From positions 3,999-67,998 of the forward strand of contig JAVHPE010000126.1 of the NCBI GenBank assembly GCA_036170475.1: a DNA stretch of 64,000 bases. The letters run 5' to 3'. This document shows, piece after piece, positions 4,635 to 58,677 of this stretch. The stretch is from Bacteroidia bacterium. GTDB lineage: Bacteria > Bacteroidota > Bacteroidia > 2-12-FULL-35-15. Both the position numbers and the translations under genes were made by a program. Below the pieces are notes generated by a model that had not been told where the DNA came from, made no database searches, and saw only the letters and a list, made by a program, of their open reading frames with translations. Positions within the stretch are counted from its first letter, which is position 1, and every line of letters begins with the position of its first letter.

Positions 4635-7268
4635 TTATTTTACTTTTTCCTTTTTAATTTTTTTATCCGATTCAATAGGATTTCGAAAAACAAATTCCTT
4701 GTTAAATAAATCCAAGACAATCTGCGAATTTTTCTGAACCTTGCCTGCTAAAATTTGTTTTGAAAGTTCATTCAATACACGCTTCTGCATAACCCGTTTG
4801 ATAGGTCTTGCGCCAAATTGAGGATCATAACCAAGTTGAGCTAACCAATCAATAGCGTCAGGTGTAGCAGTAATATAAATGTCATTTTCTTCCAGCATTT
4901 TAGCAACTCCATTGAATTGCAGTTCAACAATATGATGCACATCCTTCCTGTTAAGAGGAGTAAACATAATGGTTTCATCAATTCTATTTAAAAATTCAGG
5001 GCGCAAAGTTTTCTTCAATAGTTCGAATACTTCGATTTTTGTCCTGGCCATTATTTCATCTTTATTTTTTTCATTCATCTTTTCAAAATTTTCTTGAATA
5101 AGATGCGATCCCATATTAGATGTCATTATGATGATGGTGTTTTTAAAATTCACGATACGTCCTTTGTTATCGGTTAATCGTCCATCATCCAGCACTTGAA
5201 GCAATATATTAAATACATCAGGATGTGCTTTTTCTATTTCATCAAGCAGAACAACACTGTATGGTTTTCTGCGAACTGCTTCGGTTAACTGCCCGCCTTC
5301 TTCATAACCAACATACCCTGGAGGAGCTCCAACCAAGCGACTCACAGAGTGTCGCTCCTGATATTCACTCATATCAATGCGGGTCATACTATTTTCATTG
5401 TTAAATAAAAATTCAGCTAATGCCTTTGCTAACTCTGTTTTCCCAACACCTGTTGTACCAAGAAAAATGAATGAACCAATAGGTCGTTTTGTATCCTGTA
5501 ACCCGGCGCGACTTCTACGAACCGCATCACTGATAGCTTCTATGGCTTCATTTTGTCCTACCACACGTTTATGTAATTCATCTTCGAGATGCAGTAATTT
5601 TTCACGTTCACTTTGTAACATTCTGGAAACAGGAATACCAGTCCAGCTGGCAATAACACTGGCAATATCTTCACTATCCACTTCCTCCTTTATCATCTGT
5701 GAGCCGCTTTCTTTCATAAGGGCTAATTTATTTTCAAACACTTTCAATTCTTTTTCGGCTTCCTGCATTTTCCCATAACGTATCTCGGCAACTTTACCAT
5801 AATCCCCGCTACGTTCAGCTTGTTCAGCTTCAAATTTTAAATTTTCAATTTTTTCCTTCACTTTTTGAATGCCATCCACCACATCTTTTTCGCCCTGCCA
5901 TTTGGCCCGCAAATCGGTACGTTGATCAGCCAATTCAGCAATTTCTTTATTCAAATCTTCCAATTTTTTCTTATCATTCTCACGTTTTATTGCTTCACGT
6001 TCAATTTCCAGCTGCCGAATTTTACGTTCCAGGACATCCAATTCAATTGGCATAGAGTTGATTTGCATTCGTAATTTTGATGCTGCTTCATCCATTAAAT
6101 CAATGGCTTTATCCGGAAGGAAACGATCATTTATATAACGTTGCGAAAGTTCAACAGCAGAAATAATAGCTTCATCTTTAATACGTACTTTATGATGAGC
6201 TTCATATTTTTCTTTGATACCGCGCAAAATGGAAATAGCATCTTCGGCACTTGGTTCGTCAACCATCACCTTTTGAAAACGTCTTTCAAGTGCTTTATCC
6301 TTTTCAAAATACTTTTGAAACTCACTTAATGTTGTTGCACCAATGGCACGTAATTCGCCACGTGCCAAAGCTGGTTTAAGAATGTTTGCAGCATCCATGG
6401 CACCTTCACCTCCGCCAGCACCAACAAGCGTATGAATTTCATCAATGAATAAAATTATTTCTCCTTCTGCTCCAATTACCTCTTTAACTACTGATTTTAA
6501 ACGCTCTTCAAACTCTCCTTTATATTTTGCACCGGCAATTAATGCGCCCATATCCAATGAAAATATTTGTTTGGATTTTAAATTTTCAGGAACATCACCA
6601 TTAACGATGCGATGCGCCAACCCCTCAGCGATAGCGGTTTTACCAACACCCGGTTCACCAACTAAAATAGGGTTGTTTTTGGTTCTTCGAGATAATATTT
6701 GCAAAACTCTTCTTATCTCTTCATCCCTGCCAATGACAGGATCCAGCTTTCCTTTTTTTGCCTGCTCATTGAGATTAATGGCAAATTTGTTGAGAGAATT
6801 GTATGTATCTTCCGCGGTTTGACTGGTTACCTTAGCTCCTTTTCGGAGTTCAGTAATGGCAGTTTTCAGGTCTTTTTCATTAACACCATTATCTTTAAGC
6901 AATTGTGAGATAGTATCCTTTGTAGAAAGAATAGCAAGCAATAAATGTTCAATAGAAACATATTCATCACCAAATTCTTTCAAATAAGTAGATGCCTTTG
7001 AAATAGCCTGGTTGGCACTGTTAGATAAAAAAGGCTGGCCACCGGAAACTTTCGGATATCCTTCAACAATTTTATCTAAAGCCAAAGAAAACATCTGAGT
7101 GTTTACATTTAGTTTCTTAAGAATAAAGGGGGTTACGTTTTCATCTACCTCCAGAATACCTTTTAAAATATGCCCGTTTTCGATGTATTGTTGCCCGTTA
7201 ACTGTAGCAATCTGCATGGCATGCTGAACAGCTTCCTGCGATTTTATTGTAAAGTTATTTAGATTCAT
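4635..7268 (-). CDS. clpB: ATP-dependent chaperone ClpB
   Basis: MNLNNFTIKSQEAVQHAMQIATVNGQQYIENGHIL is the Clp N-domain. Two AAA+ modules are present (GEPGVGKTAIAEGLA and LGTTGVGKTELAKALA), separated by a long coiled-coil middle domain, with a sensor-2 GARPIKR motif. Start moved to the second in-frame ATG (MNLNN...), which matches ClpB N-termini. Confidence 0.95.
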   Translation of the reverse strand: MNLNNFTIKSQEAVQHAMQIATVNGQQYIENGHILKGILEVDENVTPFILKKLNVNTQMFSLALDKIVEGYPKVSGGQPFLSNSANQAISKASTYLKEFGDEYVSIEHLLLAILSTKDTISQLLKDNGVNEKDLKTAITELRKGAKVTSQTAEDTYNSLNKFAINLNEQAKKGKLDPVIGRDEEIRRVLQILSRRTKNNPILVGEPGVGKTAIAEGLAHRIVNGDVPENLKSKQIFSLDMGALIAGAKYKGEFEERLKSVVKEVIGAEGEIILFIDEIHTLVGAGGGEGAMDAANILKPALARGELRAIGATTLSEFQKYFEKDKALERRFQKVMVDEPSAEDAISILRGIKEKYEAHHKVRIKDEAIISAVELSQRYINDRFLPDKAIDLMDEAASKLRMQINSMPIELDVLERKIRQLEIEREAIKRENDKKKLEDLNKEIAELADQRTDLRAKWQGEKDVVDGIQKVKEKIENLKFEAEQAERSGDYGKVAEIRYGKMQEAEKELKVFENKLALMKESGSQMIKEEVDSEDIASVIASWTGIPVSRMLQSEREKLLHLEDELHKRVVGQNEAIEAISDAVRRSRAGLQDTKRPIGSFIFLGTTGVGKTELAKALAEFLFNNENSMTRIDMSEYQERHSVSRLVGAPPGYVGYEEGGQLTEAVRRKPYSVVLLDEIEKAHPDVFNILLQVLDDGRLTDNKGRIVNFKNTIIIMTSNMGSHLIQENFEKMNEKNKDEIMARTKIEVFELLKKTLRPEFLNRIDETIMFTPLNRKDVHHIVELQFNGVAKMLEENDIYITATPDAIDWLAQLGYDPQFGARPIKRVMQKRVLNELSKQILAGKVQKNSQIVLDLFNKEFVFRNPIESDKKIKKEKVK

Positions 7269-9780: not shown

Positions 9781-11049
9781 TTAATGATCATTTAATGGCA
9801 AACCTCTTTTCTGGTATTCAATCCAATTAAGATATTCATCCCCTTTCCGGTGTTCCACCATGGTAATACAATCATTTACCGGACAAACGATCTTACATAA
9901 ATTACAACCAACACATTCTTCTTCTTTAATTGTATAGGTGTTGTATGGAATTGCTCTTTCCACGGTAATTGCCTGATGAGATGTGTCTTCGCAGGAAATA
10001 TAACATAATCCGCAATGAATACATTTTTCCTGATCGATATTAGCTTCGATATGAAAATTGATGTCCAGCTCTTCCCATCTGGTAATTTTCGGAACGGATA
10101 AACCTATAAAATCATCGATACTTTTATAACCTCTTTCATCCATCCAGTTACTCATTCCATCACATAAGTCGGTAATAATTTTAAATCCATAAATCATTGC
10201 AGCGGTACAAACCTGCACATTACTTGAACCCAGGAGCATAAACTCTACCGCATCTTTCCAGGTGGTTATGCCACCAATACCGGAAATAGGGATATTCCGT
10301 AATTTAGCTTCCTGAGCAAGTGTTGTTACCATTTTCAAAGCAATTGGTTTTACAGCAGGACCACAATATCCACCAAAAACAGACTGTCCACCTACATTTG
10401 GATTTGGAACAAGTGTACCTAAATCAATTCCGGTAACGGATTGTATTGTATTAATTAGTGAAAGTCCATTTGTGCCACCTTCAAAAGCAGCAATTGCACC
10501 GGGAACGGCAGAATGAACATTGGGGGTAAGTTTTGTAATTACAGGAATTGATGCAACTTCCATTACCCATTCAACAACCATTTTTGCAATTTCAGGATCT
10601 TGTCCAACAGCAGCACCCATCCCTCTTTCAACCATTCCATGCGGACATCCGAAATTTAATTCTAATCCGTGAGCACCGGTATCCTGGGCTTTCTTAACCA
10701 GTTCATGCCAGCTTTTTCTGTCGTTATCAGCCATCAACGAAACAATCATAGCACGGTCTGGAAACAGTTTTATCACTTCTTTAATTTCTTTCAGATTTAT
10801 TGCAAGTGGCCGATCCGAAATAAGTTCTATATTATTAAAACCTACTGCTTTTCTTCCGTTATAGCTAAGTGCAGAATATCTTGATGACACATTTTTAACC
10901 TGGGAGCCAAGTGTTTTCCATACTACTCCGCCCCACCCTGCCTCAAATGCACGTAGAACATTTGTTTTTTTATCAGTTGGAGGAGCTGACGCTAACCAAA
11001 AAGGATTGGGCGATTTTATGCCTAGAAAGTTTGATTGTAAATTTGCCAT
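9781..11049 (-). CDS. preA: NAD-dependent dihydropyrimidine dehydrogenase subunit PreA (DHOD-like TIM barrel plus 2x[4Fe-4S] ferredoxin)
   Basis: FLGIKSPNPFWLASAPPT...GWGGVVWKTLG...NFGCPHGM is the DHPD/DHOD fold. The C-terminus CIHCGLCYISCEDTSHQ...CVGCNLCKIVCP has two 4Fe-4S motifs. Confidence 0.85.
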   Translation of the reverse strand: MANLQSNFLGIKSPNPFWLASAPPTDKKTNVLRAFEAGWGGVVWKTLGSQVKNVSSRYSALSYNGRKAVGFNNIELISDRPLAINLKEIKEVIKLFPDRAMIVSLMADNDRKSWHELVKKAQDTGAHGLELNFGCPHGMVERGMGAAVGQDPEIAKMVVEWVMEVASIPVITKLTPNVHSAVPGAIAAFEGGTNGLSLINTIQSVTGIDLGTLVPNPNVGGQSVFGGYCGPAVKPIALKMVTTLAQEAKLRNIPISGIGGITTWKDAVEFMLLGSSNVQVCTAAMIYGFKIITDLCDGMSNWMDERGYKSIDDFIGLSVPKITRWEELDINFHIEANIDQEKCIHCGLCYISCEDTSHQAITVERAIPYNTYTIKEEECVGCNLCKIVCPVNDCITMVEHRKGDEYLNWIEYQKRGLPLNDH

Positions 11050-13719: not shown

Positions 13720-14209
13720 TTTCCCGCAGATTTCGCAAATTTTCGCAGATTTTTTTCTTGGTTAACCCGTTCTATCTATTTGAGATATTTGTAAATTATT
13801 TACTTTCCTATAAATTGAATTTGAAATATTATCGGTATTGAAATTTACTAGTATTCCTAGCTTTTTACCAGACAATTTCAAGTAAGTTAATACTTGTTTG
13901 TGATGTACATCTGCAATTTGTTCTACAGATTTTATTTCAATAATAACTAAATCATTTACTATAATATCTATTCTAAAACCAATATCTAATTTTTCACTTT
14001 CATAAATTACAGGTAAGGCAACTTGTGATCTGACCTCCAGTCCTTTCTTTTTCAATTCGAACATTAAGACCGCTTCATAAACTGATTCCAACAGGCCTGG
14101 CCCAAGTGAATTGTAAACTTTAAAAATAGCACCTCTTATAATGTAAGAAATTTCATTTTCTATCATTTTCTTAATTTTTTCCGCGTAAATCCGTGAAATC
14201 TGCGGGAAA
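13720..14209. mobile_element. inverted-repeat-bounded GxxExxY gene cassette
   Basis: TTTCCCGCAGATTTC at 13720-13734 and its exact reverse complement at 14195-14209 flank the GxxExxY ORF. Confidence 0.5.
13762..14166 (-). CDS. GxxExxY protein (PD-(D/E)XK nuclease-like)
   Basis: 134 aa. GPGLLESVYEAVLMFELKKKGLEV...IDIIVNDLVIIEIKSVE is the canonical GxxExxY family signature. Confidence 0.85.
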   Translation of the reverse strand: MIENEISYIIRGAIFKVYNSLGPGLLESVYEAVLMFELKKKGLEVRSQVALPVIYESEKLDIGFRIDIIVNDLVIIEIKSVEQIADVHHKQVLTYLKLSGKKLGILVNFNTDNISNSIYRKVNNLQISQIDRTG

Positions 14210-15541
14210 CAAATATTCTAAAATCCCTTTTGCTCCATCTTTTCCAGCCTGAACAGCATCCACAACTTCTTTGCCTCCATTTACGGAATCTCCACCGGCA
14301 AAAACTCCTTTCAAATTGGTTTCAGATTTTTCATTGATAGAAATTTTTCCATTTTTATTTTGTACGGACGATTTATTCAGAAGTTCTTCGAATGGCATCT
14401 GTCCTGCAGCTTTAATCACCATATCTACATCAATAGTAAATGTTTCACCCGTATCAACAGGAGCTCTTCTGCCCGAAGCATCAGGATCACCAAGCTTCAT
14501 TTTGTTGCAAACCAATTTTTTTACGTTGCCATTTTCACCAATAATTTCTTTAGGACTAGCTAACCAAATAAATGAACAACCATCAAGTTTCGCTAAATCA
14601 AGTTCCACATCGGTACATGGTTTTTCATTTTCTGTTCTACGGTAAATCATCGTTACTTCTCTTGATCCAAGGCGTTTTGATTGTGTTGCGGCATCAATGG
14701 CAGTCATTCCCATGCCTATAACAGCCACCTTATCTCCAACGGCTGTTGAAGAATAATCATTCGTACGAAGGTCATAAACAAATGAAATAGCATCTACAAC
14801 ACCTTCTAATTTTTCACCCGGAATATCTAATGAACGTGCAATTCCAACGCCTATTCCTAAAAATACCGCGTCATATTTTTTTTGAAGATCCGCAAGTATA
14901 ATGTCCTTCCCTAACTCTTTATTATATTGAACATTAATGCCTCCAATAGAAAGAATATAATCCACTTCATTTTTACAAAACTCAGGAGTAACCTTGTAAG
15001 CTGCCACTCCATAGGTCATTAAGCCACCGCCCTTTTTTTCTTTTTCAAAAATTGTAACATCCACACCTTGCAGAGAAAGTGCGTGTGCACAAGCTAATCC
15101 GGCAGGACCGGCGCCAACAACCGCTGCTTTTTTTCCATTAGAATGATTACGTTCAAAAAGTTTCCATTTTTCCTGAATCGCTTTTTCAGTAACATATCGT
15201 TGAAGTTTAGAGATGGCTATTGGTTTTTCTTCGAGCAAATTAAATACACAAATTCCTTCACACAACTTTTCTACAGGGCAAACTTTTGAGCATCCTCCAC
15301 CCATAATATTGGAAGTAAAAATGGTTTTTGCTGAACCTTTAATATTCCCGGAAGAAATTTGTTTTATGAATAATGGAACGTCAATACTTGTAGGACATAA
15401 TTTAGTGCATGGTGCATCATAACAATTAATACACCTGTCGGCTTCAATCATAGCACCTTCAGCATGTTCAAAAGGGGGATGAACGTCAGAAAAATTTTCT
15501 ATTAAAACTTCTTTTGATAAACGATTGTTTTTGATTGACAT
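14171..15541 (-). CDS. preT: NAD-dependent dihydropyrimidine dehydrogenase subunit PreT (GltD-like)
   Basis: N-terminal Cys cluster CINCYDAPCTKLCP, then Rossmann motifs AAVVGAGPAGLACA and KVAVIGMGMTAIDAA. This is the glutamate-synthase small-subunit-like fold, with preA nearby. Confidence 0.85.
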   Translation of the reverse strand: MSIKNNRLSKEVLIENFSDVHPPFEHAEGAMIEADRCINCYDAPCTKLCPTSIDVPLFIKQISSGNIKGSAKTIFTSNIMGGGCSKVCPVEKLCEGICVFNLLEEKPIAISKLQRYVTEKAIQEKWKLFERNHSNGKKAAVVGAGPAGLACAHALSLQGVDVTIFEKEKKGGGLMTYGVAAYKVTPEFCKNEVDYILSIGGINVQYNKELGKDIILADLQKKYDAVFLGIGVGIARSLDIPGEKLEGVVDAISFVYDLRTNDYSSTAVGDKVAVIGMGMTAIDAATQSKRLGSREVTMIYRRTENEKPCTDVELDLAKLDGCSFIWLASPKEIIGENGNVKKLVCNKMKLGDPDASGRRAPVDTGETFTIDVDMVIKAAGQMPFEELLNKSSVQNKNGKISINEKSETNLKGVFAGGDSVNGGKEVVDAVQAGKDGAKGILEYLFPADFTDLRGKN

Positions 15542-16346: not shown

Positions 16347-17213
16347 TTACAGTTCCGTTAATCTACCGTAGGTTTCAGGTCTTCTGTCTCTGTAAAATTG
16401 CCAGGTACCTCTCACTTCTTCAATCATATCAAGATCAAAGTCAGCAATTAATAATTCGTCTTTATCTTCTGAGGCACAGGCAAATATTTGTCCGCGTGGA
16501 TCAACAAAATAAGAGCTTCCATAAAACTTACCTAAGTTCCAAGGTTTTTCCATTCCAACTCTGTTAATGCAACCCATAAAATAGCCATTTGCAGCTGCAT
16601 GGGCAGGTTGTTCCAATTTCCATAAATATTGCGATAATCCAGCGACCGTTGCAGACGGATTATAAACTATTTCAGCTCCATTTAATCCAAGGCATCTTGC
16701 ACCATCAGGAAAATGTCTGTCATAACAAATGTACACACCTATTTTCGCATATTTAGTTTGAAATACCGGATAACCAAGGTTTCCAGGCTTAAAGAAAAAC
16801 TTTTCCCAAAAGCCTGATGTTTGAGGAATATGATTTTTCCTGTATTTACCAAGATAGGTGCCATCTGCATCAATCACTGCAGCGGTATTATACAAAACTC
16901 CTTCCTGCTCCTTCTCATAGATCGGAACGATAATTACCATGTTGTATTTTTTCGCATACGTTGCCATCAAATCAGTAGTTGGTCCCGGAACAGCTTCTGC
17001 CGAAGCATACCATTTGTTATCTTGTCCCGGGCAGAAATAAGGAGTATTAAATATTTCCTGCAGACATAATATCTGAACTCCCTTTTTTCCGGCTTCCTCG
17101 ATATACGGAATGTGTTTTTGCACCATTGCATTGCAAATTTCTTTAATTGTTCCTTCTCCTTCAGTCATTGGAAGGCTCATTTGAATAAGTCCTGATTTAA
17201 TAATTCTTGCCAT
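16347..17213 (-). CDS. carbon-nitrogen hydrolase (nitrilase superfamily), beta-ureidopropionase / N-carbamoyl-amino-acid amidohydrolase-like
   Basis: 288 aa. Catalytic-triad context: E in LCLQEIF, K in GKYRKNHIP, C in GVYICYDRHFPD. Lies between preT and dihydropyrimidinase. Confidence 0.7.
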   Translation of the reverse strand: MARIIKSGLIQMSLPMTEGEGTIKEICNAMVQKHIPYIEEAGKKGVQILCLQEIFNTPYFCPGQDNKWYASAEAVPGPTTDLMATYAKKYNMVIIVPIYEKEQEGVLYNTAAVIDADGTYLGKYRKNHIPQTSGFWEKFFFKPGNLGYPVFQTKYAKIGVYICYDRHFPDGARCLGLNGAEIVYNPSATVAGLSQYLWKLEQPAHAAANGYFMGCINRVGMEKPWNLGKFYGSSYFVDPRGQIFACASEDKDELLIADFDLDMIEEVRGTWQFYRDRRPETYGRLTEL

Positions 17214-17361
17214 GTGGTTTAGTTTAGAGTTAAAAGTTTAGAGTTAAGAGTTTTTGTTTTGTGTTAAAAAAGTTTTGAGCTATATAGTTTTGAGTTAAAA
17301 GTGTAAATAGTTTTGAGTTAAAAGTTTAGAGTTATGAGTTTTTGTAGTGTGTTAAAAAAGT
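17214..17361. repeat. tandem duplication (about 45-bp units) at the left end of the four-helix-bundle cassette
   Basis: AGTTTAGAGTTAAGAGTTTTTGTTTTGTGTTAAAAAAGTTTTGAGC, then AGTTTAGAGTTATGAGTTTTTGTAGTGTGTTAAAAAAGTTTAGAGTT, with extra GAGTTAAAAGT units. Confidence 0.6.
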
Positions 17362-17752
17362 TTAGAGTTGTTTTGTTAAATATTTTTCTTTTGTTGTAAG
17401 TATAATACTGCTCAGAATTTTCATAAGTTCATTGCAATTATTTATTAAATTAATGTATTCTTCTTTATCTATGAAACCACTATCCGAAAGTAAATTAAGC
17501 CAATATGCCGTTTCTCTTGCTTCTTTTAATGAGATACTCATTTTGTGAATAAAATCTCTTTTTGATTCCCCTGCTAAAGCTTCGTTAATATTGGCTCCTA
17601 TGGAAGTGCCAGAACGTAAAACTTGTTTTGATAAAATAAATTCTCTCTTTTCAGACGATAAATTTTTGTAAAGTTTAATTATTAATAACGCAAAAGCATA
17701 AGATTTCCTTCCAACAATACTATCATTCTGTTTTAATAAACTCATAACTCTA
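17327..17752. mobile_element. inverted-repeat-bounded four-helix-bundle gene cassette
   Basis: TAGAGTTATGAGTTT at 17327-17341 and its exact reverse complement AAACTCATAACTCTA at 17738-17752. The ORF start codon lies inside the right arm. Confidence 0.5.
17362..17745 (-). CDS. four-helix-bundle protein (TIGR02436 / 23S rRNA intervening-sequence protein family)
   Basis: 127 aa. LSKQVLRSGTSIGANINEALAGESKRDFIHKMSISLKEARETAYWL is the family signature. Confidence 0.8.
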   Translation of the reverse strand: MSLLKQNDSIVGRKSYAFALLIIKLYKNLSSEKREFILSKQVLRSGTSIGANINEALAGESKRDFIHKMSISLKEARETAYWLNLLSDSGFIDKEEYINLINNCNELMKILSSIILTTKEKYLTKQL

Positions 17753-17763
17753 CTCTCTTAATT

Positions 17764-19143
17764 TTAAACTAAAGTAAATTTATTTCTTCTGATAAATTTA
17801 CCATATCCTTTTTCGACAAGTAATTTATTATCATCCACAGCTACATTACCTCTCAGGATTATTGTTTTGCATTTACCTGTTAATTGCCATCCTTCATAAC
17901 CGGAATAATCACAATTCATATGATGAGTTTTTGCAGAAATGGTATGCTTTTCATTCGGATCTAAAATTACTATATCAGCATCAGAACCTACAGCAATAGT
18001 ACCTTTCTGAGGATACATTCCAAATATTTTGGCTGCATTTGTGGAACTTACCTCAACAAATTTGTTCAGACTGATTTTATTTTTAATTACTCCTTCGGAG
18101 AATAATAATTCCATCCTGTTTTCAATTCCCGGAGCCCCATTCGGGATTTTTGTGAAATCGGTTGAACCCGCTTTCTTTTGTTCCCATGTGAATGGGCAAT
18201 GATCTGTCGCAACCACTTGCACAGTTCCCTGATTGATTCCTGCCCATAGACTTGTCTGATCTTTTTTCTCCCGTATCGGTGGACTCATCACCCATTTTGC
18301 AGATTCAAACCCTTTGTCATAAACAGAAGCATCGAGGACCAAATATTGAATACAGGTTTCAACAAAAATTTTCTGATTTCTTTTAGCAGCATCTCGGATG
18401 TGATTAAGCGCATCCTCGCTGGTCAGGTGTACAACATAAGATGGGACTCCTGTATGATACGCCATATCAGAAAAACGGCTTGTGGCTTCGCTTTCAGTAA
18501 TTTCGGGCTGAGATAAATAATGAAACAGAGGAGAAAGTTTCCCTTCCGATTTATGCTTCGCTACTAAGTAATCAATCATATCGCCATTGGTAGCATGAGT
18601 AGTTAATAATCCACCCTGTTTTTTTACTTCATGCATCAAGCCAATCATTTGCTTATCGTCAATCATTAAAGCACCTTTATAAGCCATGAATGTTTTGAAA
18701 GAAGTAATACCCTCTTTTTCAATCATGTCTTTTATTTCAGATCTGATTTCTTCATTAAAATCTGTTACGGACATGTGAAAAGAATAATCTCCAACAGCAT
18801 TTCCATCAGCACGACCCTTCCATTCATTTAATGCTGCGTATAAGGATTTCCCTTGTTTTTGGATCACAAAATCTATTACCATGGTAGTTCCTCCAAAAAG
18901 GGCTGCACGTGTTCCCGTTTCGTAATTATCACTGGAATAAGTCCCCATGAAGGGCATATCCAGATGAACATGAGGATCGATACCACCGGGTATTACCAAT
19001 TTGTTTTTTGCATCTATAACTATGTCCGCATTAACTGAAAGGTTGAGACCGATAAGTTTTACTTTTTCCTTTTCAATATAAATATCTGCAACATAATCAT
19101 CAGCAGCAGTTATAACTCTCCCATTTTTTATTAGAATTGACAT
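17764..19143 (-). CDS. dihydropyrimidinase / D-hydantoinase (cyclic amidohydrolase)
   Basis: ILIKNGRVITA...VIPGGIDPHVHLDMPFMGT...FKTFMAYKGALM, with metal-binding H-x-H, a carbamylated-Lys region and VVATDHCPF. Start set at MSILIKNG. Confidence 0.85.
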   Translation of the reverse strand: MSILIKNGRVITAADDYVADIYIEKEKVKLIGLNLSVNADIVIDAKNKLVIPGGIDPHVHLDMPFMGTYSSDNYETGTRAALFGGTTMVIDFVIQKQGKSLYAALNEWKGRADGNAVGDYSFHMSVTDFNEEIRSEIKDMIEKEGITSFKTFMAYKGALMIDDKQMIGLMHEVKKQGGLLTTHATNGDMIDYLVAKHKSEGKLSPLFHYLSQPEITESEATSRFSDMAYHTGVPSYVVHLTSEDALNHIRDAAKRNQKIFVETCIQYLVLDASVYDKGFESAKWVMSPPIREKKDQTSLWAGINQGTVQVVATDHCPFTWEQKKAGSTDFTKIPNGAPGIENRMELLFSEGVIKNKISLNKFVEVSSTNAAKIFGMYPQKGTIAVGSDADIVILDPNEKHTISAKTHHMNCDYSGYEGWQLTGKCKTIILRGNVAVDDNKLLVEKGYGKFIRRNKFTLV

Positions 19144-19310
19144 GTATGTTTTTTTAATCAAAGAATTTAAAATTCAATAAAAGATACAAAAATCAAATTT
19201 AATGAAATTTTCCAGAGGCTCTATATCTCACTTCCAAAATTTTATATTTTTTTGAATAAATTTTGCTTATATTTAGCTTCCTTAATTTTATAGACTTTAA
19301 AAATACTTTC

Positions 19311-37418: not shown

Positions 37419-38564
37419 ATGCAAACAAAAAGAATAACCATTGTAAACAGGCATTATCCTCCTAATATTAATATTACCGGAGAAAATGCCTGGGATTTAG
37501 CAAATTATTTAATTGAAAAACATAAAATTGAAGTCTCCATTGTACACATCGATCGTAAATATGAAGGAGGTGGAAATAAAAGAGAATCTGTCGGAATTAT
37601 TTACCCTCTGAAAACAATTTATGAAGGCAAAAATAAATTTTTGCGATACATAAGTGGAATGATGGATGGTTACAACTTGATAAAAAAAGCGGCAAAGTTG
37701 AATAATGGCCCCATCATTGTAATGACAAGCCCGCCGCTTCTTCCAATGTGGGCTTCAAAAATTCTGGGTAAAAGAAAAAAAGAATGGATCTTATGGAGCA
37801 TGGATTTATTCCCCGAAGGTTTTGCCGCATCCAACGAAATAAGCCCGACAAATTTTCTTTACAAATATGCTCTGAGGCAAACCTATAAATATGCTCCCGA
37901 AAAAATCATTGCACTTGGACCTCAACAGAAGAAGGTATTAGAACAGAAATATAAAAAGGAAATTGAGAATGTGATTCTGCCTTGTGGTGTTTTTTTAGAT
38001 CAAAATAAAATTGAAAACACTCCCTCCTGGAAAATTCATACTAATAAGATTTACCTTGGGTACTGTGGCAATTGCGGCATTCCACACTCCGTAGATTTTA
38101 TTAAAGAAGTTATTGACGCAATTAACCCTGATACACAACAGTTGGTTTTAGCTGTTTATGGTACTAAAGCGGAACAAGTGATTACTTATGCGAAAGGTAA
38201 ACCTGGAATTACCATACTTACAAACGTTCCAAGAAATGAATTGCATCATATTGATGTTCATTTGGTAACATTGGTAAACTCCTGGACACATGTGGCGGTA
38301 CCATCAAAGGCGGTAAGTAGTGTCTGTTCAGGTGCTACTATCTTATTCTGTGGCAATAAAGAGAGTGATAATTGGTGTTTACTTAAGGATGCCGGTTGGC
38401 TGGTGGAAGATGATTTGAATTTAAAACAAAATGTCCAAAAAGCCCTTGCTTCATTAAATTGGGTGGAAATCAAAATAAAAAAAAATAATGCATCCCGAAT
38501 ATCCGCCGAACTCAATAGCCTGATACTTCAAAGCTATGCCACAATTGCCACCTGGGCTAACTGA
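37419..38564 (+). CDS. glycosyltransferase (GT-B, group 1/GT4-like, WcaI-type)
   Basis: 381 aa. N-terminal [26 protein letters not shown], typical of GT4 N-domains. Followed by an epimerase and a second glycosyltransferase. Confidence 0.6.
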
Positions 38565-38634
38565 ATTAACTGAATTAACCGATTTTATTAATTTTAATAA
38601 TTATATTTGCATTTTAAAATCTATTCAAATTCAA

Positions 38635-45639: not shown

Positions 45640-46119
45640 GTCCCCCTTGTGAGTTGGACTGTGGGATTGCGAAGGGGGCAGGGGGATGAAAATCTGTTAT
45701 TCATGAACAACCATTACAATAAAAAGTTAAAATCCTTCGCTCAAAGCAATAGAAATTTTTCAACTAAAGCGGAAATAAGAATTTGGTGTGAATTATTGAG
45801 AAATAAAAAAATGTTAGGGTTCCCGTTTTTACGTCAACGACCAATTGAGAATTATATAGCTGATTTTATGTGTAAAGAACTAAATTTGATAATTGAAATT
45901 GATGGCTATTCTCATCAATTCAAATATGAGGAAGATATTGAAAGAGATGACAGACTAAAACAATTGGGATTTCATGTTCTGCGTTTTACAGATGACGAAA
46001 TAACAAAACATATTACAAATGTTGAACGTGCTATTATTCAATGGATAGATAATAAAGAAAAACAATTTCATCCCCCTGCCCCCTTCACTGACGCACATTC
46101 AATCACACAAGGGGGACAA
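45640..46119. mobile_element. DUF559 endonuclease gene bounded by about 49-bp imperfect terminal inverted repeats
   Basis: Left GTCCCCCTTGTGAG-n17-GAAGGGGGCAGGGGGATG at 45640-45688. Right (reverse complement) GTCCCCCTTGTGTG-n17-GAAGGGGGCAGGGGGATG at 46069-46119. Confidence 0.55.
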
Positions 46120-46131
46120 AAAAACAGATAA
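45703..46131 (+). CDS. DUF559 (Vsr-like) endonuclease domain protein
   Basis: NRNFSTKAEIRIWCELLRNKKMLGFPFLRQRPIENYIADFMCKELNLIIEIDGYSH...RDDRLKQLGFHVLRF is the DUF559 signature. Start set at MNNHY. Confidence 0.8.
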   Translation: MNNHYNKKLKSFAQSNRNFSTKAEIRIWCELLRNKKMLGFPFLRQRPIENYIADFMCKELNLIIEIDGYSHQFKYEEDIERDDRLKQLGFHVLRFTDDEITKHITNVERAIIQWIDNKEKQFHPPAPFTDAHSITQGGQKNR

Positions 46132-54779: not shown

Positions 54780-54854
54780 AACAATTTTGCTATTGAGCAA
54801 TTGGCAATTGGCAATTATGCAATTTTAATTGAGCAATTGGCAATTTAGAACATA

Positions 54855-54900
54855 GTCCCCCTTGTGAGAAAGCAAGTGTGGAGGAGAAGGGGGGTGCGAA
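54855..54900. repeat. solo copy of the DUF559-cassette terminal repeat
   Basis: GTCCCCCTTGTGAG-n18-GAAGGGGGGTGCGAAG has the same architecture as the 45640-45688 repeat, with no endonuclease ORF nearby. Confidence 0.5.
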
Positions 54901-57610: not shown

Positions 57611-57885
57611 ATATTTCTTTATTTGAAACAAATGTATGATTTTTTTATTTTACCATGCAGGTAACAAGCCTTGGGTGTACGACAAATATCCCTAACTATT
57701 TTTATTCCAAACCATACGGCAATGTCATTGAGTTATGGAACTTTCAAACATAAATGTCTCCCCAAGGTCTTCTACAGGCTTTGACTGAGTGCGCTAGGTC
57801 AGTCTGATTAAACAATTAAAAAAATTTAAAGCTCTTTGAAAATGACACAAAAAATTTTAAAATTACAGCAAACAAAAAGCATTTT

Positions 57886-58110
57886 TTCTTTTTGCTTGAT
57901 CAAAAAGAAACAAAAATTCAGTGGGGTGCGGCTGATGTCTCCCGCATAATGCGGGACGAACTGCAATTTTTTCAAGCCAAGTTTTGGCTGGTTTTGTGTG
58001 AAAGAAAAAATTGGTTTGGTTTTCGTGGTCTCTTTTTATTGCTGGCACACAATCTCGCTCATCCCGCCACAGGCGGGCTGCCGCTTTCTTTTGGAGAAGC
58101 AAAAGAAAGT
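57886..58110 (+). ncRNA. candidate structured non-coding element B (paralog of element A)
   Basis: 5' hairpin TTCTTTTTG-cttgat-CAAAAAGAA (57886-57910). Conserved blocks GGTGCGGCTGATGTC (57925), GGTTTGGTTTTCGTGGTCTC (58013), and 3' hairpin CTTTCTTTTG-gagaag-CAAAAGAAAG (58084-58109). Internal hairpins TCCCGCATAATGCGGGA and CCCGCCACAGGCGGG. Confidence 0.3.
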
Positions 58111-58187
58111 AAAATGTCCAATGAGTAAAAAAGTTATGTTTCATAAAAAAGTAATATTGTAAGTAATTGAAAAAAAATTAGCTACAT

Positions 58188-58232
58188 AGTGTGTCATTGG
58201 AAGCCTGTCGAAATATGTGCGATGGCTTCTTA
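58188..58232. repeat. REP-like repeat, family 1, half copy
   Basis: TCATTGGAAGCCTGTCGAAATATGTGCGATGGCTTCTTAA versus 21209-21247 TCATATTGAGCCTGTCGAAATATGTGCGATAGCATCTTAA. Confidence 0.6.
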
Positions 58233-58677
58233 AATTATGAGATTAGGGAAATTTGTCGTACACCCCAAGCCTTTGAACAGAAAATCTTAACGATAAGCCG
58301 GCATTTTAAAATAAAATTCATCTCAAATTTAATGAAACATTAAAACTTATTTTTCGTAGAATGTGTTCTAAAAAATTAACATCATTTAACAAAAAATGAT
58401 TGTATATGTTAAAATAAATGGTATATTGCGTAACGGTATTACATATTATCTTAAACAATCCCACAATAGTGGAGGATCAACTATAATATCCCATCAAAAT
58501 AAAAAAGTTTTTGCGAATTTTTTACTGATTAACAACAATAAGTGAGACAAAGAGATTGGAAATAATCTTTGATGATTGTCTATTATTCTTCTTTTTTAAT
58601 TTATTATTTTTTTACTAATCTGAATATAAACTGTGGGCTCATCTATAAAGCATACCGACTCTTAACTCAACCATATT

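Follow-up and report, generated by a model that had tools for sequence, protein, structure and literature searches.

The origin and mobility of the intervening sequences (IVSs) of bacterial ribosomal RNA (rRNA), and likewise the function of their conserved open reading frame (ORF), have been a puzzle since about 1990. In Coxiella burnetii, a 428-nucleotide (nt) IVS in helix 45 of the 23S rRNA carries an S23p ORF of the PF05635 family (Warrier et al. 2016, PMC4990558): two to three tandem heptamers of GACAGAT, their number depending on the strain, stand directly before its ATG, the IVS is excised by RNase III with the 5' cut at the first heptamer, and the paper leaves the origin and mobility of IVSs unresolved. 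Members of PF05635 also occur in 16S and 23S insertions of candidate phyla radiation bacteria, and the family was still termed functionally uncharacterized in 2024 (PMC11270868). Here we describe a member of this family in a 64-kb stretch of DNA from a Bacteroidia bacterium (the window, by which we mean the whole stretch analyzed), where it lies between two genes of a pyrimidine-catabolism operon. We put at roughly 65% the probability that positions 17218-17773 constitute an IVS-type gene cassette, that is, a functional PF05635 gene between inverted heptamer arrays in the spacer of this operon; gene and arms are probably acquired and lost together as one cassette.

A second described system concerns the arrays rather than the gene. 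Unexplained intergenic arrays of the heptamer TAACTGA have been reported from Beggiatoaceae, Cyanobacteria, and some Bacteroidetes, where they stand immediately upstream of start codons (MacGregor 2015, PMC4679880). In the literature outside subscription journals, we found no description of cassettes such as the present one outside rRNA, and no link between heptamer arrays and genes for IVS proteins. The long simple sequence repeats reported by Mrazek et al. in 2007 are counted here with the same system of intergenic heptamer direct repeats.

The gene and its arms in the operon spacer

The pyrimidine-catabolism gene string occupies the minus strand of the window from 13.7 to 19.2 kb, in a genome with a guanine-cytosine (GC) content of 35%. 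Within it, an ORF of 127 amino acids (17362..17745, minus strand) is preceded by the dihydropyrimidinase gene (17764..19161, minus strand; TIGR02033, E 7e-176) and followed by a gene for a CN_hydrolase-family amidase (16347..17213, minus strand; nitrilase superfamily, beta-ureidopropionase-like), and these two serve as its host genes. The ORF matches TIGR02436 (E 3.7e-33, 114 bits against a cutoff of 24) and PF05635, 23S_rRNA_IVP (E 4.5e-30, 104.4 bits against a cutoff of 33.8), and so belongs to the four-helix-bundle family annotated as "23S rRNA intervening-sequence protein" or S23p. Together with the TIGR02033 match, these profiles bear out a preliminary description of the stretch, which had placed a TIGR02436 four-helix-bundle gene between beta-ureidopropionase and dihydropyrimidinase. 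The protein is homologous to PDB entry 2RLD (E 1.3e-32), a pentameric four-helix-bundle structure, and PDB entry 2GSC is matched by the family profile at 2e-15; each of the two entries holds five chains. Among orthologs, the ratio of nonsynonymous to synonymous substitution (dN/dS) is 0.05-0.13, which indicates that the four-helix-bundle protein is under purifying selection and functional.

The same description had pointed to a 15-mer, TAGAGTTATGAGTTT, at 17327-17341 on the plus strand, to its perfect reverse complement at 17738-17752, to an ATG (17745-17743) inside the right-hand arm, and to a gap of only 18 nt (17746-17763) between the ORF start and the dihydropyrimidinase stop; all of these were located as described. 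The perfect 15-mer turns out to be the core of longer arms, which measure 34-36 nt and are 82-83% complementary. The 5' arm in gene orientation (17738..17773, minus strand; ..TTTAGTTTAAAATTAAGAGAGTAGAGTTATGAGTTT) proceeds through the heptamers AAGAGAG, TAGAGTT, and ATGAGTT to a further T and holds the ATG of the ORF. It also overlaps the last codons and the stop (17766-17764) of dihydropyrimidinase, whose C-terminal residues are encoded by it.

On the other side of the gene stand two copies of the 3' arm. The proximal copy (17308..17341, minus strand; 34 nt, 82% complementary) reads AAACTCATAACTCTAAACTTTTAACTCAAAACTA on the coding strand and contains the perfect 15-mer, while the distal copy (17218..17253, minus strand; 36 nt, 83% complementary) lies 4 nt before the amidase ATG (17213). 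Both belong to a duplication of the 3' flank (17220..17377), in which two 70-nt copies (17220-17289 and 17308-17377), 87% identical and set at a spacing of 88 nt, are separated by two 23-nt sub-repeats (17281-17303 and 17304-17326). The proximal 70-nt copy extends into the last codons of the ORF, whose final ..QL* is read from a AACTCTAAAC unit. A 7/14-nt unit, AGTTTAGAGTTAAA, makes up the whole 148-nt spacer downstream of the gene, and the arms as such are heptamer arrays, (GAGTTWW)n on the 5' side and (WWAACTC)n on the 3' side, the latter forming a G-free array of AACTCWW-type heptamers that runs from the last codons of the ORF to the edge of the amidase gene. The cassette (17218-17773) fills the operon spacer completely, beginning at the dihydropyrimidinase stop and leaving 4 nt free ahead of the amidase ATG. 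Matches to TAGAGTTATGAGTTT with up to two mismatches number five in the window against 0.25 expected, a count that 0 of 100 shuffles reached, and the heptamer unit is confined to this locus within the window.

In the predicted RNA fold, the 5' arm pairs with the distal 3' arm in both the minimum-free-energy and the centroid structure, closing the whole cistron. By analogy with the Coxiella IVS, we infer that the arms would form an imperfect stem of about 35 bp on the polycistronic transcript, one that encloses the cistron, hides its ATG, and is a likely substrate of RNase III; the processing by RNase III and the mechanism of mobility are putative. With a stem cut in this manner, a transcription unit, or an rRNA, could host the cassette and not be destroyed by it. 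The placement of the arms would also permit translational coupling: the 5' arm runs into the end of the upstream ORF and the 3' arm borders on the next ATG, so that ribosomes finishing dihydropyrimidinase could melt the stem and keep the downstream gene coupled.

Set beside the IVSs of 23S rRNA (Coxiella helix 45; Leptospira), the window cassette shares the PF05635/S23p ORF family with its pentameric bundle (2GSC/2RLD), an ORF enclosed by complementary stem-forming ends (the window stem being a predicted one), heptamers of strain-variable number at or before the ATG, sporadic occurrence in relatives, and a size in the range of about 0.4-0.56 kb. It differs in lying in the spacer of a protein-coding operon rather than in an rRNA helix, and Rfam finds no rRNA in the window. 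Likewise, its heptamer is GAGTTWW rather than the GACAGAT of the Coxiella IVS, and its ORF is under purifying selection in the window lineage, whereas that of Coxiella is decaying. RNase III cleavage has been shown for the Coxiella IVS, whereas the window cassette is known here from its sequence.

Instability of the arrays and turnover among relatives

Orthologs of the gene occupy the same slot in other metagenomes, at 87%, 81%, and 62-71% protein identity (loci are referred to by L numbers), and their downstream spacers vary widely in length, from 45 nt in L014, 54 nt in L016, and 61-65 nt in L020, L021, and L023 to 375 nt in L011, as against 148 nt in the window. The L011 spacer contains about 26 tandem 14-nt copies of AACTCATAACTCT[AT], whereas L020, L021, and L023 have a single flank of 61-65 nt that is not duplicated; in L020 the expanded array is the 5' one. 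The 3' flank of the window corresponds to an L021-type flank plus one 88-nt duplication. At the finest scale, three contigs that encode an identical protein are exactly one CTCATAA unit apart (five versus six), and short-read contigs of the window's own strain frequently break within the spacer. Given the variation in spacer length and the one-heptamer difference between strains, the duplicated left end is, as read from these comparisons, a lineage-specific 88-nt duplication in an unstable heptamer array, and thus an instance of repeat-number instability. The preliminary description was right that the left end is present in a second copy; the tandem of about 45 bp that it gave is replaced by the 70-nt copies at 88-nt spacing. 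Its interpretation of the duplication as a footprint of insertion or excision, or as a target duplication, was rejected in view of the variable spacers of the orthologs and the single-CTCATAA difference. No target-site duplication was found outside the arms, where the flanks (..AAATTTAC and CCACATGG..) share no direct repeat.

The gene itself also turns over among relatives. We took one genome per species with a dihydropyrimidinase, which gave 80 Bacteroidota loci, and mapped the operon genes onto them. The dihydropyrimidinase-amidase slot is empty (20-140 nt) in most of the 80 species, including the closest, L019. It holds a window-type gene in L020, L021 (frameshifted), L023, L063, L066, L076, and L059 (with the ORF inverted), a distant four-helix-bundle gene in L024 and L030, and a gene of the GxxExxY family in L022. 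A second slot, after the preT-like gene, is occupied in about 12 species by a GxxExxY gene and in about 7 by a four-helix-bundle gene. The cultured carrier Ferruginibacter sp. SUN106 (L066) has a cassette in each of the two slots. Occupied sites are scattered over the host-gene tree, and the members of sister pairs are not alike in occupancy (L063 versus L060, L014 versus L026). In the sister species L021 and L022 the same slot is even filled by different families, with a four-helix-bundle gene in the former and a GxxExxY gene in the latter. Pairwise alignments place the limits of the swapped segment at the last ~6 codons of the upstream gene and at ~10-20 nt before the next ATG, so that it comprises the gene and both arms. 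On the evidence of these alignments, close relatives gain, lose, or replace gene and arms as a single unit.

This patchy filling, the differing sister species, and the similar arms around other family members sustain the earlier proposal that the gene with its inverted arms is a discrete cassette. The preliminary description had named an arrangement that is syntenic and invariant across distant relatives as grounds for abandoning that proposal; the arrangement is indeed syntenic in relatives with a 62-68% identical protein, but it is not invariant.

The spacers of the pyrimidine-catabolism operon are general insertion hot spots. In L224-L226, three cassettes occur in one operon: dihydropyrimidinase is preceded by a GxxExxY gene and followed by a four-helix-bundle gene, and another four-helix-bundle gene comes after the preT-like gene. 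In L084 (3048-4911), an operon spacer contains a pair formed by a DNA methyltransferase and a restriction-like gene, and in L091 (4220-5088) a spacer contains a 274-amino-acid gene of unknown type.

Design of the arms across gene families

To score flanking inverted repeats, we applied Smith-Waterman alignment between the start-codon region of each gene and the region after its stop codon. Four-helix-bundle genes (n = 16) reach a median score of 35.5 and GxxExxY genes (n = 17) one of 35, compared with 17 for controls (n = 475; Mann-Whitney p = 2e-9 and 5e-7, respectively, against controls). The comparison with other four-helix-bundle copies that had been proposed for this locus finds similar arms around further genes of the family. 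Every arm is a tandem array of short units, and the length of the unit follows the gene family even within one genome: a period of 7 is found in 26 of 32 four-helix-bundle flanks, while among 34 GxxExxY flanks the period is 8 in 16, 9-10 in several, and 7 in 4. The sequence of the unit varies by lineage, with GAGTTAT, GAATTAT, GAATGAT, AATGTTG, and GGTTATT among the forms seen. Arms pair better with their own partner (39.7) than with the partner of an ortholog (27.9; permutation p = 0.0024), which, on this measure of pairing, shows that both arms of an element change together between lineages. In most orthologs, the best duplex falls clearly under the mean of the shuffles; the ATG is covered by the 5' arm of this duplex in 7 of 9 cases, and in 7 of 9 the 3' arm stops no more than about 4 nt from the next ATG. 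A scan of viral contigs with the family alignment recovered five loci, all five with inverted heptamer arrays around the ORF, and two of these (L221 and L222) differ by one unit. Inverted arrays of period 7 with the ATG in the 5' array thus recur around independent family members both in other slots of operons and in phage contigs.

Some of the "controls" also score highly, and these are operon genes that lie between ORF-less hairpins built from the same units, such as TTTAAATGTTGAATTTTAAATGTTGAATG-loop-CATTTAAAATTCAACATT. Hairpins of AATGTTG/AATTTTA heptamers occur in successive operon spacers of L055, L063, and L097 (in L063 near 1000, 2400, and 3930); each stops some 10 nt short of the next ATG, and their units are shared with the arms of the four-helix-bundle cassettes after the preT-like gene. 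These ORF-less hairpins are short forms of the same element type.

The window itself holds further repeat-bounded genes. A second cassette of the same design (13720..14209, minus strand) surrounds a 134-amino-acid GxxExxY ORF (13762-14166, minus strand; PF13366/PDDEXK_3) with 30-nt arms (13720-13749 and 14180-14209; 83% complementary) that are composed of units of about 9 nt, with CGCAGATTT in three copies. Its 5' arm encodes the last 12, non-conserved residues, FPADFTDLRGKN*, and the stop of the preT-like oxidoreductase (14171-15541, minus strand). A third small gene bounded by inverted repeats (45640..46117, plus strand) is a DUF559 (PF04480) ORF at approximately 45703-46131, whose G-rich arms measure 59 nt and are 80% complementary. 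A solo copy of the start of this DUF559 arm, GTCCCCCTTGTGAG, is present at 54855-54868 in another spacer 9 kb away; it is preceded there, at 54792-54845, by an array of about seven ATTGGCA/GCAATTG heptamers that begins 13 nt past the stop of a 633-amino-acid ORF, and this spacer looks like a collection of arm remnants. At 57668-58270, 28-nt inverted repeats that are 89% complementary are separated by 547 nt, in which there is neither a convincing ORF nor a match to Rfam.

Weighing the explanations

Before turning to broader rivals, we considered whether the gene might belong to another recognized kind of system. Avd, which serves diversity-generating retroelements as their accessory protein, is a small pentamer of four-helix bundles that is usually placed with this superfamily. 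An Avd_like domain is mentioned in PMC8934634. A retroelement of this type was rejected here: no reverse transcriptase and no template or variable repeats lie nearby, and all neighbors within about 4 kb are assigned to other gene types, the neighbors in the window being genes for a ceramidase, dihydropyrimidinase, the amidase, a MaoC-like protein (listed between the amidase and the preT-like gene), the preT-like oxidoreductase, the GxxExxY protein, and a secreted protein. No Avd chain in the PDB is hit at E<=1 by the four-helix-bundle family profile. An integron cassette was set aside as well, with repeats on both sides of the ORF rather than a single 3' attC and with flanking catabolic genes whose conservation and synteny extend over 80 species; no hidden Markov model search for intI was made. 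The four-helix-bundle protein has no match in PADLOC or PHROGs, which leaves a reading as a defense system without support. Rfam yields nothing at E<=1 over 13-20 kb and nothing at gathering scores over the whole window, and a scan for sigma-70 promoters and intrinsic terminators shows no excess, a scan that does not cover Bacteroidota promoters. In a figure legend of PMC10910872, "23S rRNA IVP" is listed among proteins associated with CRISPR arrays; as a matter of speculation, tandem arrays flanking IVP genes might be picked up as repeat arrays in such CRISPR listings.

Several observations weigh against an IVS-type cassette. The fold of the whole cassette is not more stable than its shuffles (z = -0.46), a result that is to be expected, and hence uninformative, because the stem encloses an ORF; the best duplex is also no better than shuffles in the window, L011, L023, and L066. 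Mismatches in the arms comprise 28 sense-strand G.U pairs against 36 antisense-compatible A.C pairs (p = 0.38) and are mostly transversions; with no excess of G.U, nothing in them ties selection specifically to the coding-strand RNA. The inverted rule has an exception in L141, a metagenome contig of 50% GC with two four-helix-bundle genes on the minus strand (9909-10302 and 6358-6796), one of which has (AACTCAA/AATTCAA)n arrays, while the other has direct (AAACGAA)n arrays to either side. Arrays are also found without the gene. A metagenome-wide search with the 15-mer returned at least 120 loci, mostly single chance matches, and among the matches listed none stands beside a four-helix-bundle ORF, while about eight loci in unrelated contigs carry the same heptamer arrays with no such ORF. 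In one of these contigs, of 62% GC (L176:1697-5059), AT-rich GAGTTWW/WWAACTC arrays lie in the spacers of genes for a sensor kinase, an aminotransferase, and prfB, including one inverted pair about 240 nt apart with no recognizable ORF between its members, so that the same unit type is present in a distant, GC-rich organism. In addition, all window-type relatives looked up (62-100% identity) occupy the dihydropyrimidinase-amidase slot; the window-type subfamily is therefore slot-specific, which also fits an old resident gene with repeated losses. Finally, AACTCTAAACTAA persists just before the amidase ATG in the empty slots of L019 (5378-5484) and L026 (5378-5403), so part of the 3' array may be a leader element of the host. 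The empty slot of L019 also retains GGAACGC...CAGCGTTC, which resembles the arms of the L022 GxxExxY cassette; the AACTCTAAACTAA and CAGCGTTC sequences may be either footprints of lost cassettes or host leader elements.

The strongest rival, which we consider improbable, is an element that moves or recombines at the level of DNA, a homing or MITE-like cassette (MITE, miniature inverted-repeat transposable element) whose inverted arrays are its sites for recombination or for cruciforms. It would spread by site-specific homing into this slot or by homologous recombination through the conserved flanking genes, and any RNA stem would be incidental. Presence, absence, and replacement between sister species are what such an element would produce, and homing endonuclease genes, MITEs, and repetitive extragenic palindromic (REP) elements are likewise small selfish intergenic units that differ in presence between close relatives; like MITE/REP elements, moreover, the present ones have long forms with an ORF and short forms without (the ORF-less hairpins of L055, L063, and L097). 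In L059 (2600-3200), an intact four-helix-bundle ORF is inverted relative to the operon between arms (50/54 complementary) that retain their polarity, the outcome expected of recombination between inverted arrays; this is a DNA-level event, and it counts against a view confined to RNA. The absence of a strand-specific G.U signature points the same way, as do the nuclease folds encoded by the GxxExxY and DUF559 cassettes, which recall free-standing homing endonuclease genes. In four species pairs, the proportion of synonymous differences (pS) of the four-helix-bundle gene (0.40-0.47) is below that of both flanking genes (0.54-0.73), which hints, at the level of sequence divergence, that the cassette is younger than its surroundings, but it could alternatively reflect constraint in a short gene with only about 80 synonymous sites. 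Against a DNA-level element, there is no transposase or recombinase in or next to the cassette and no target-site duplication, and the four-helix-bundle protein has no nuclease motif and no known catalytic activity (PMC11270868). Its arms are tandem arrays whose length and sequence vary between orthologs, unlike the fixed terminal repeats of MITE/REP elements, and the unit occurs at one locus only within the window.

Less probable again is an old, vertically inherited resident gene accompanied by regulatory repeats of the host, in which TAACTGA-like arrays for leader or translation control have expanded by replication slippage and their inverted arrangement serves local regulation only. The resemblance to the arrays of MacGregor (2015, PMC4679880) is considerable: both have a period of 7, are intergenic and variable in copy number, and are found in Bacteroidetes, and in both only a few nt separate the 'forward' arrays from a start codon (1 nt in that study), and the 'reverse' arrays follow a stop codon. 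The 3' units of the window (TAACTCA, TAACTCT, and AAACTCA) are not TAACTGA, with TAACTCA and TAACTCT one base away from it, and the window arrays differ in forming an inverted pair that brackets a specific gene family, a link not made in PMC4679880. The TAACTGA heptamer itself is contained in a short tandem array elsewhere in the window (38558-38579; TAACTGAAT in 2.4 copies). A resident gene would also accord with the slot-specificity of the subfamily over wide divergence, with purifying selection on the protein, with a G-free 3' array that comes to within 0-4 nt of the next ATG and is retained at empty sites, and with arrays that lack the ORF even in contigs of 62% GC. It leaves unexplained, however, why unit length tracks the gene family within one genome (7 versus 8-10 nt), why different families fill the same slot in sister species, and why the same design recurs on phage-borne homologs and in the rRNA form of the IVS. 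Chance low-complexity sequence in an AT-rich spacer beside an ordinary small gene, to which a simple-sequence spacer in a genome of 35% GC might have pointed, is already refuted by the excess of 15-mer matches, the family-wide enrichment of flanking inverted repeats, the co-varying arms, and their recurrence at independent loci.

In our view the locus fits best among the IVS-type cassettes, with a host site of a new kind, and this classification generalizes beyond the window. The locus and its relatives present the ORF family and heptamer-armed design of the rRNA IVSs outside rRNA, together with purifying selection, turnover between sister species, and occurrence in phages. Filled, empty, swapped, and inverted sites, along with arrays that differ in length, supply many natural variants for comparison. 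Intergenic heptamer repeats may find an explanation here as well. In practice, these arrays interrupt short-read assemblies and can lead to spurious tails in the gene calls next to them. More tentatively, PF05635 genes with inverted heptamer arrays, paralleled by GxxExxY and DUF559 genes with arm types of their own, may represent a widespread and undescribed class of selfish 'IVS-like' cassettes that would colonize operon spacers, phage genomes, and rRNA helices by means of stem excision at the RNA level, with the pentamer recognizing its own arrays; such binding of the pentamer to its heptamer arrays is an attractive idea. If this class were real, it would account together for the origin of bacterial rRNA intervening sequences, for the unexplained intergenic heptamers known from Bacteroidetes, Cyanobacteria, and Beggiatoaceae, and for the large families of paralogs that these small genes form.

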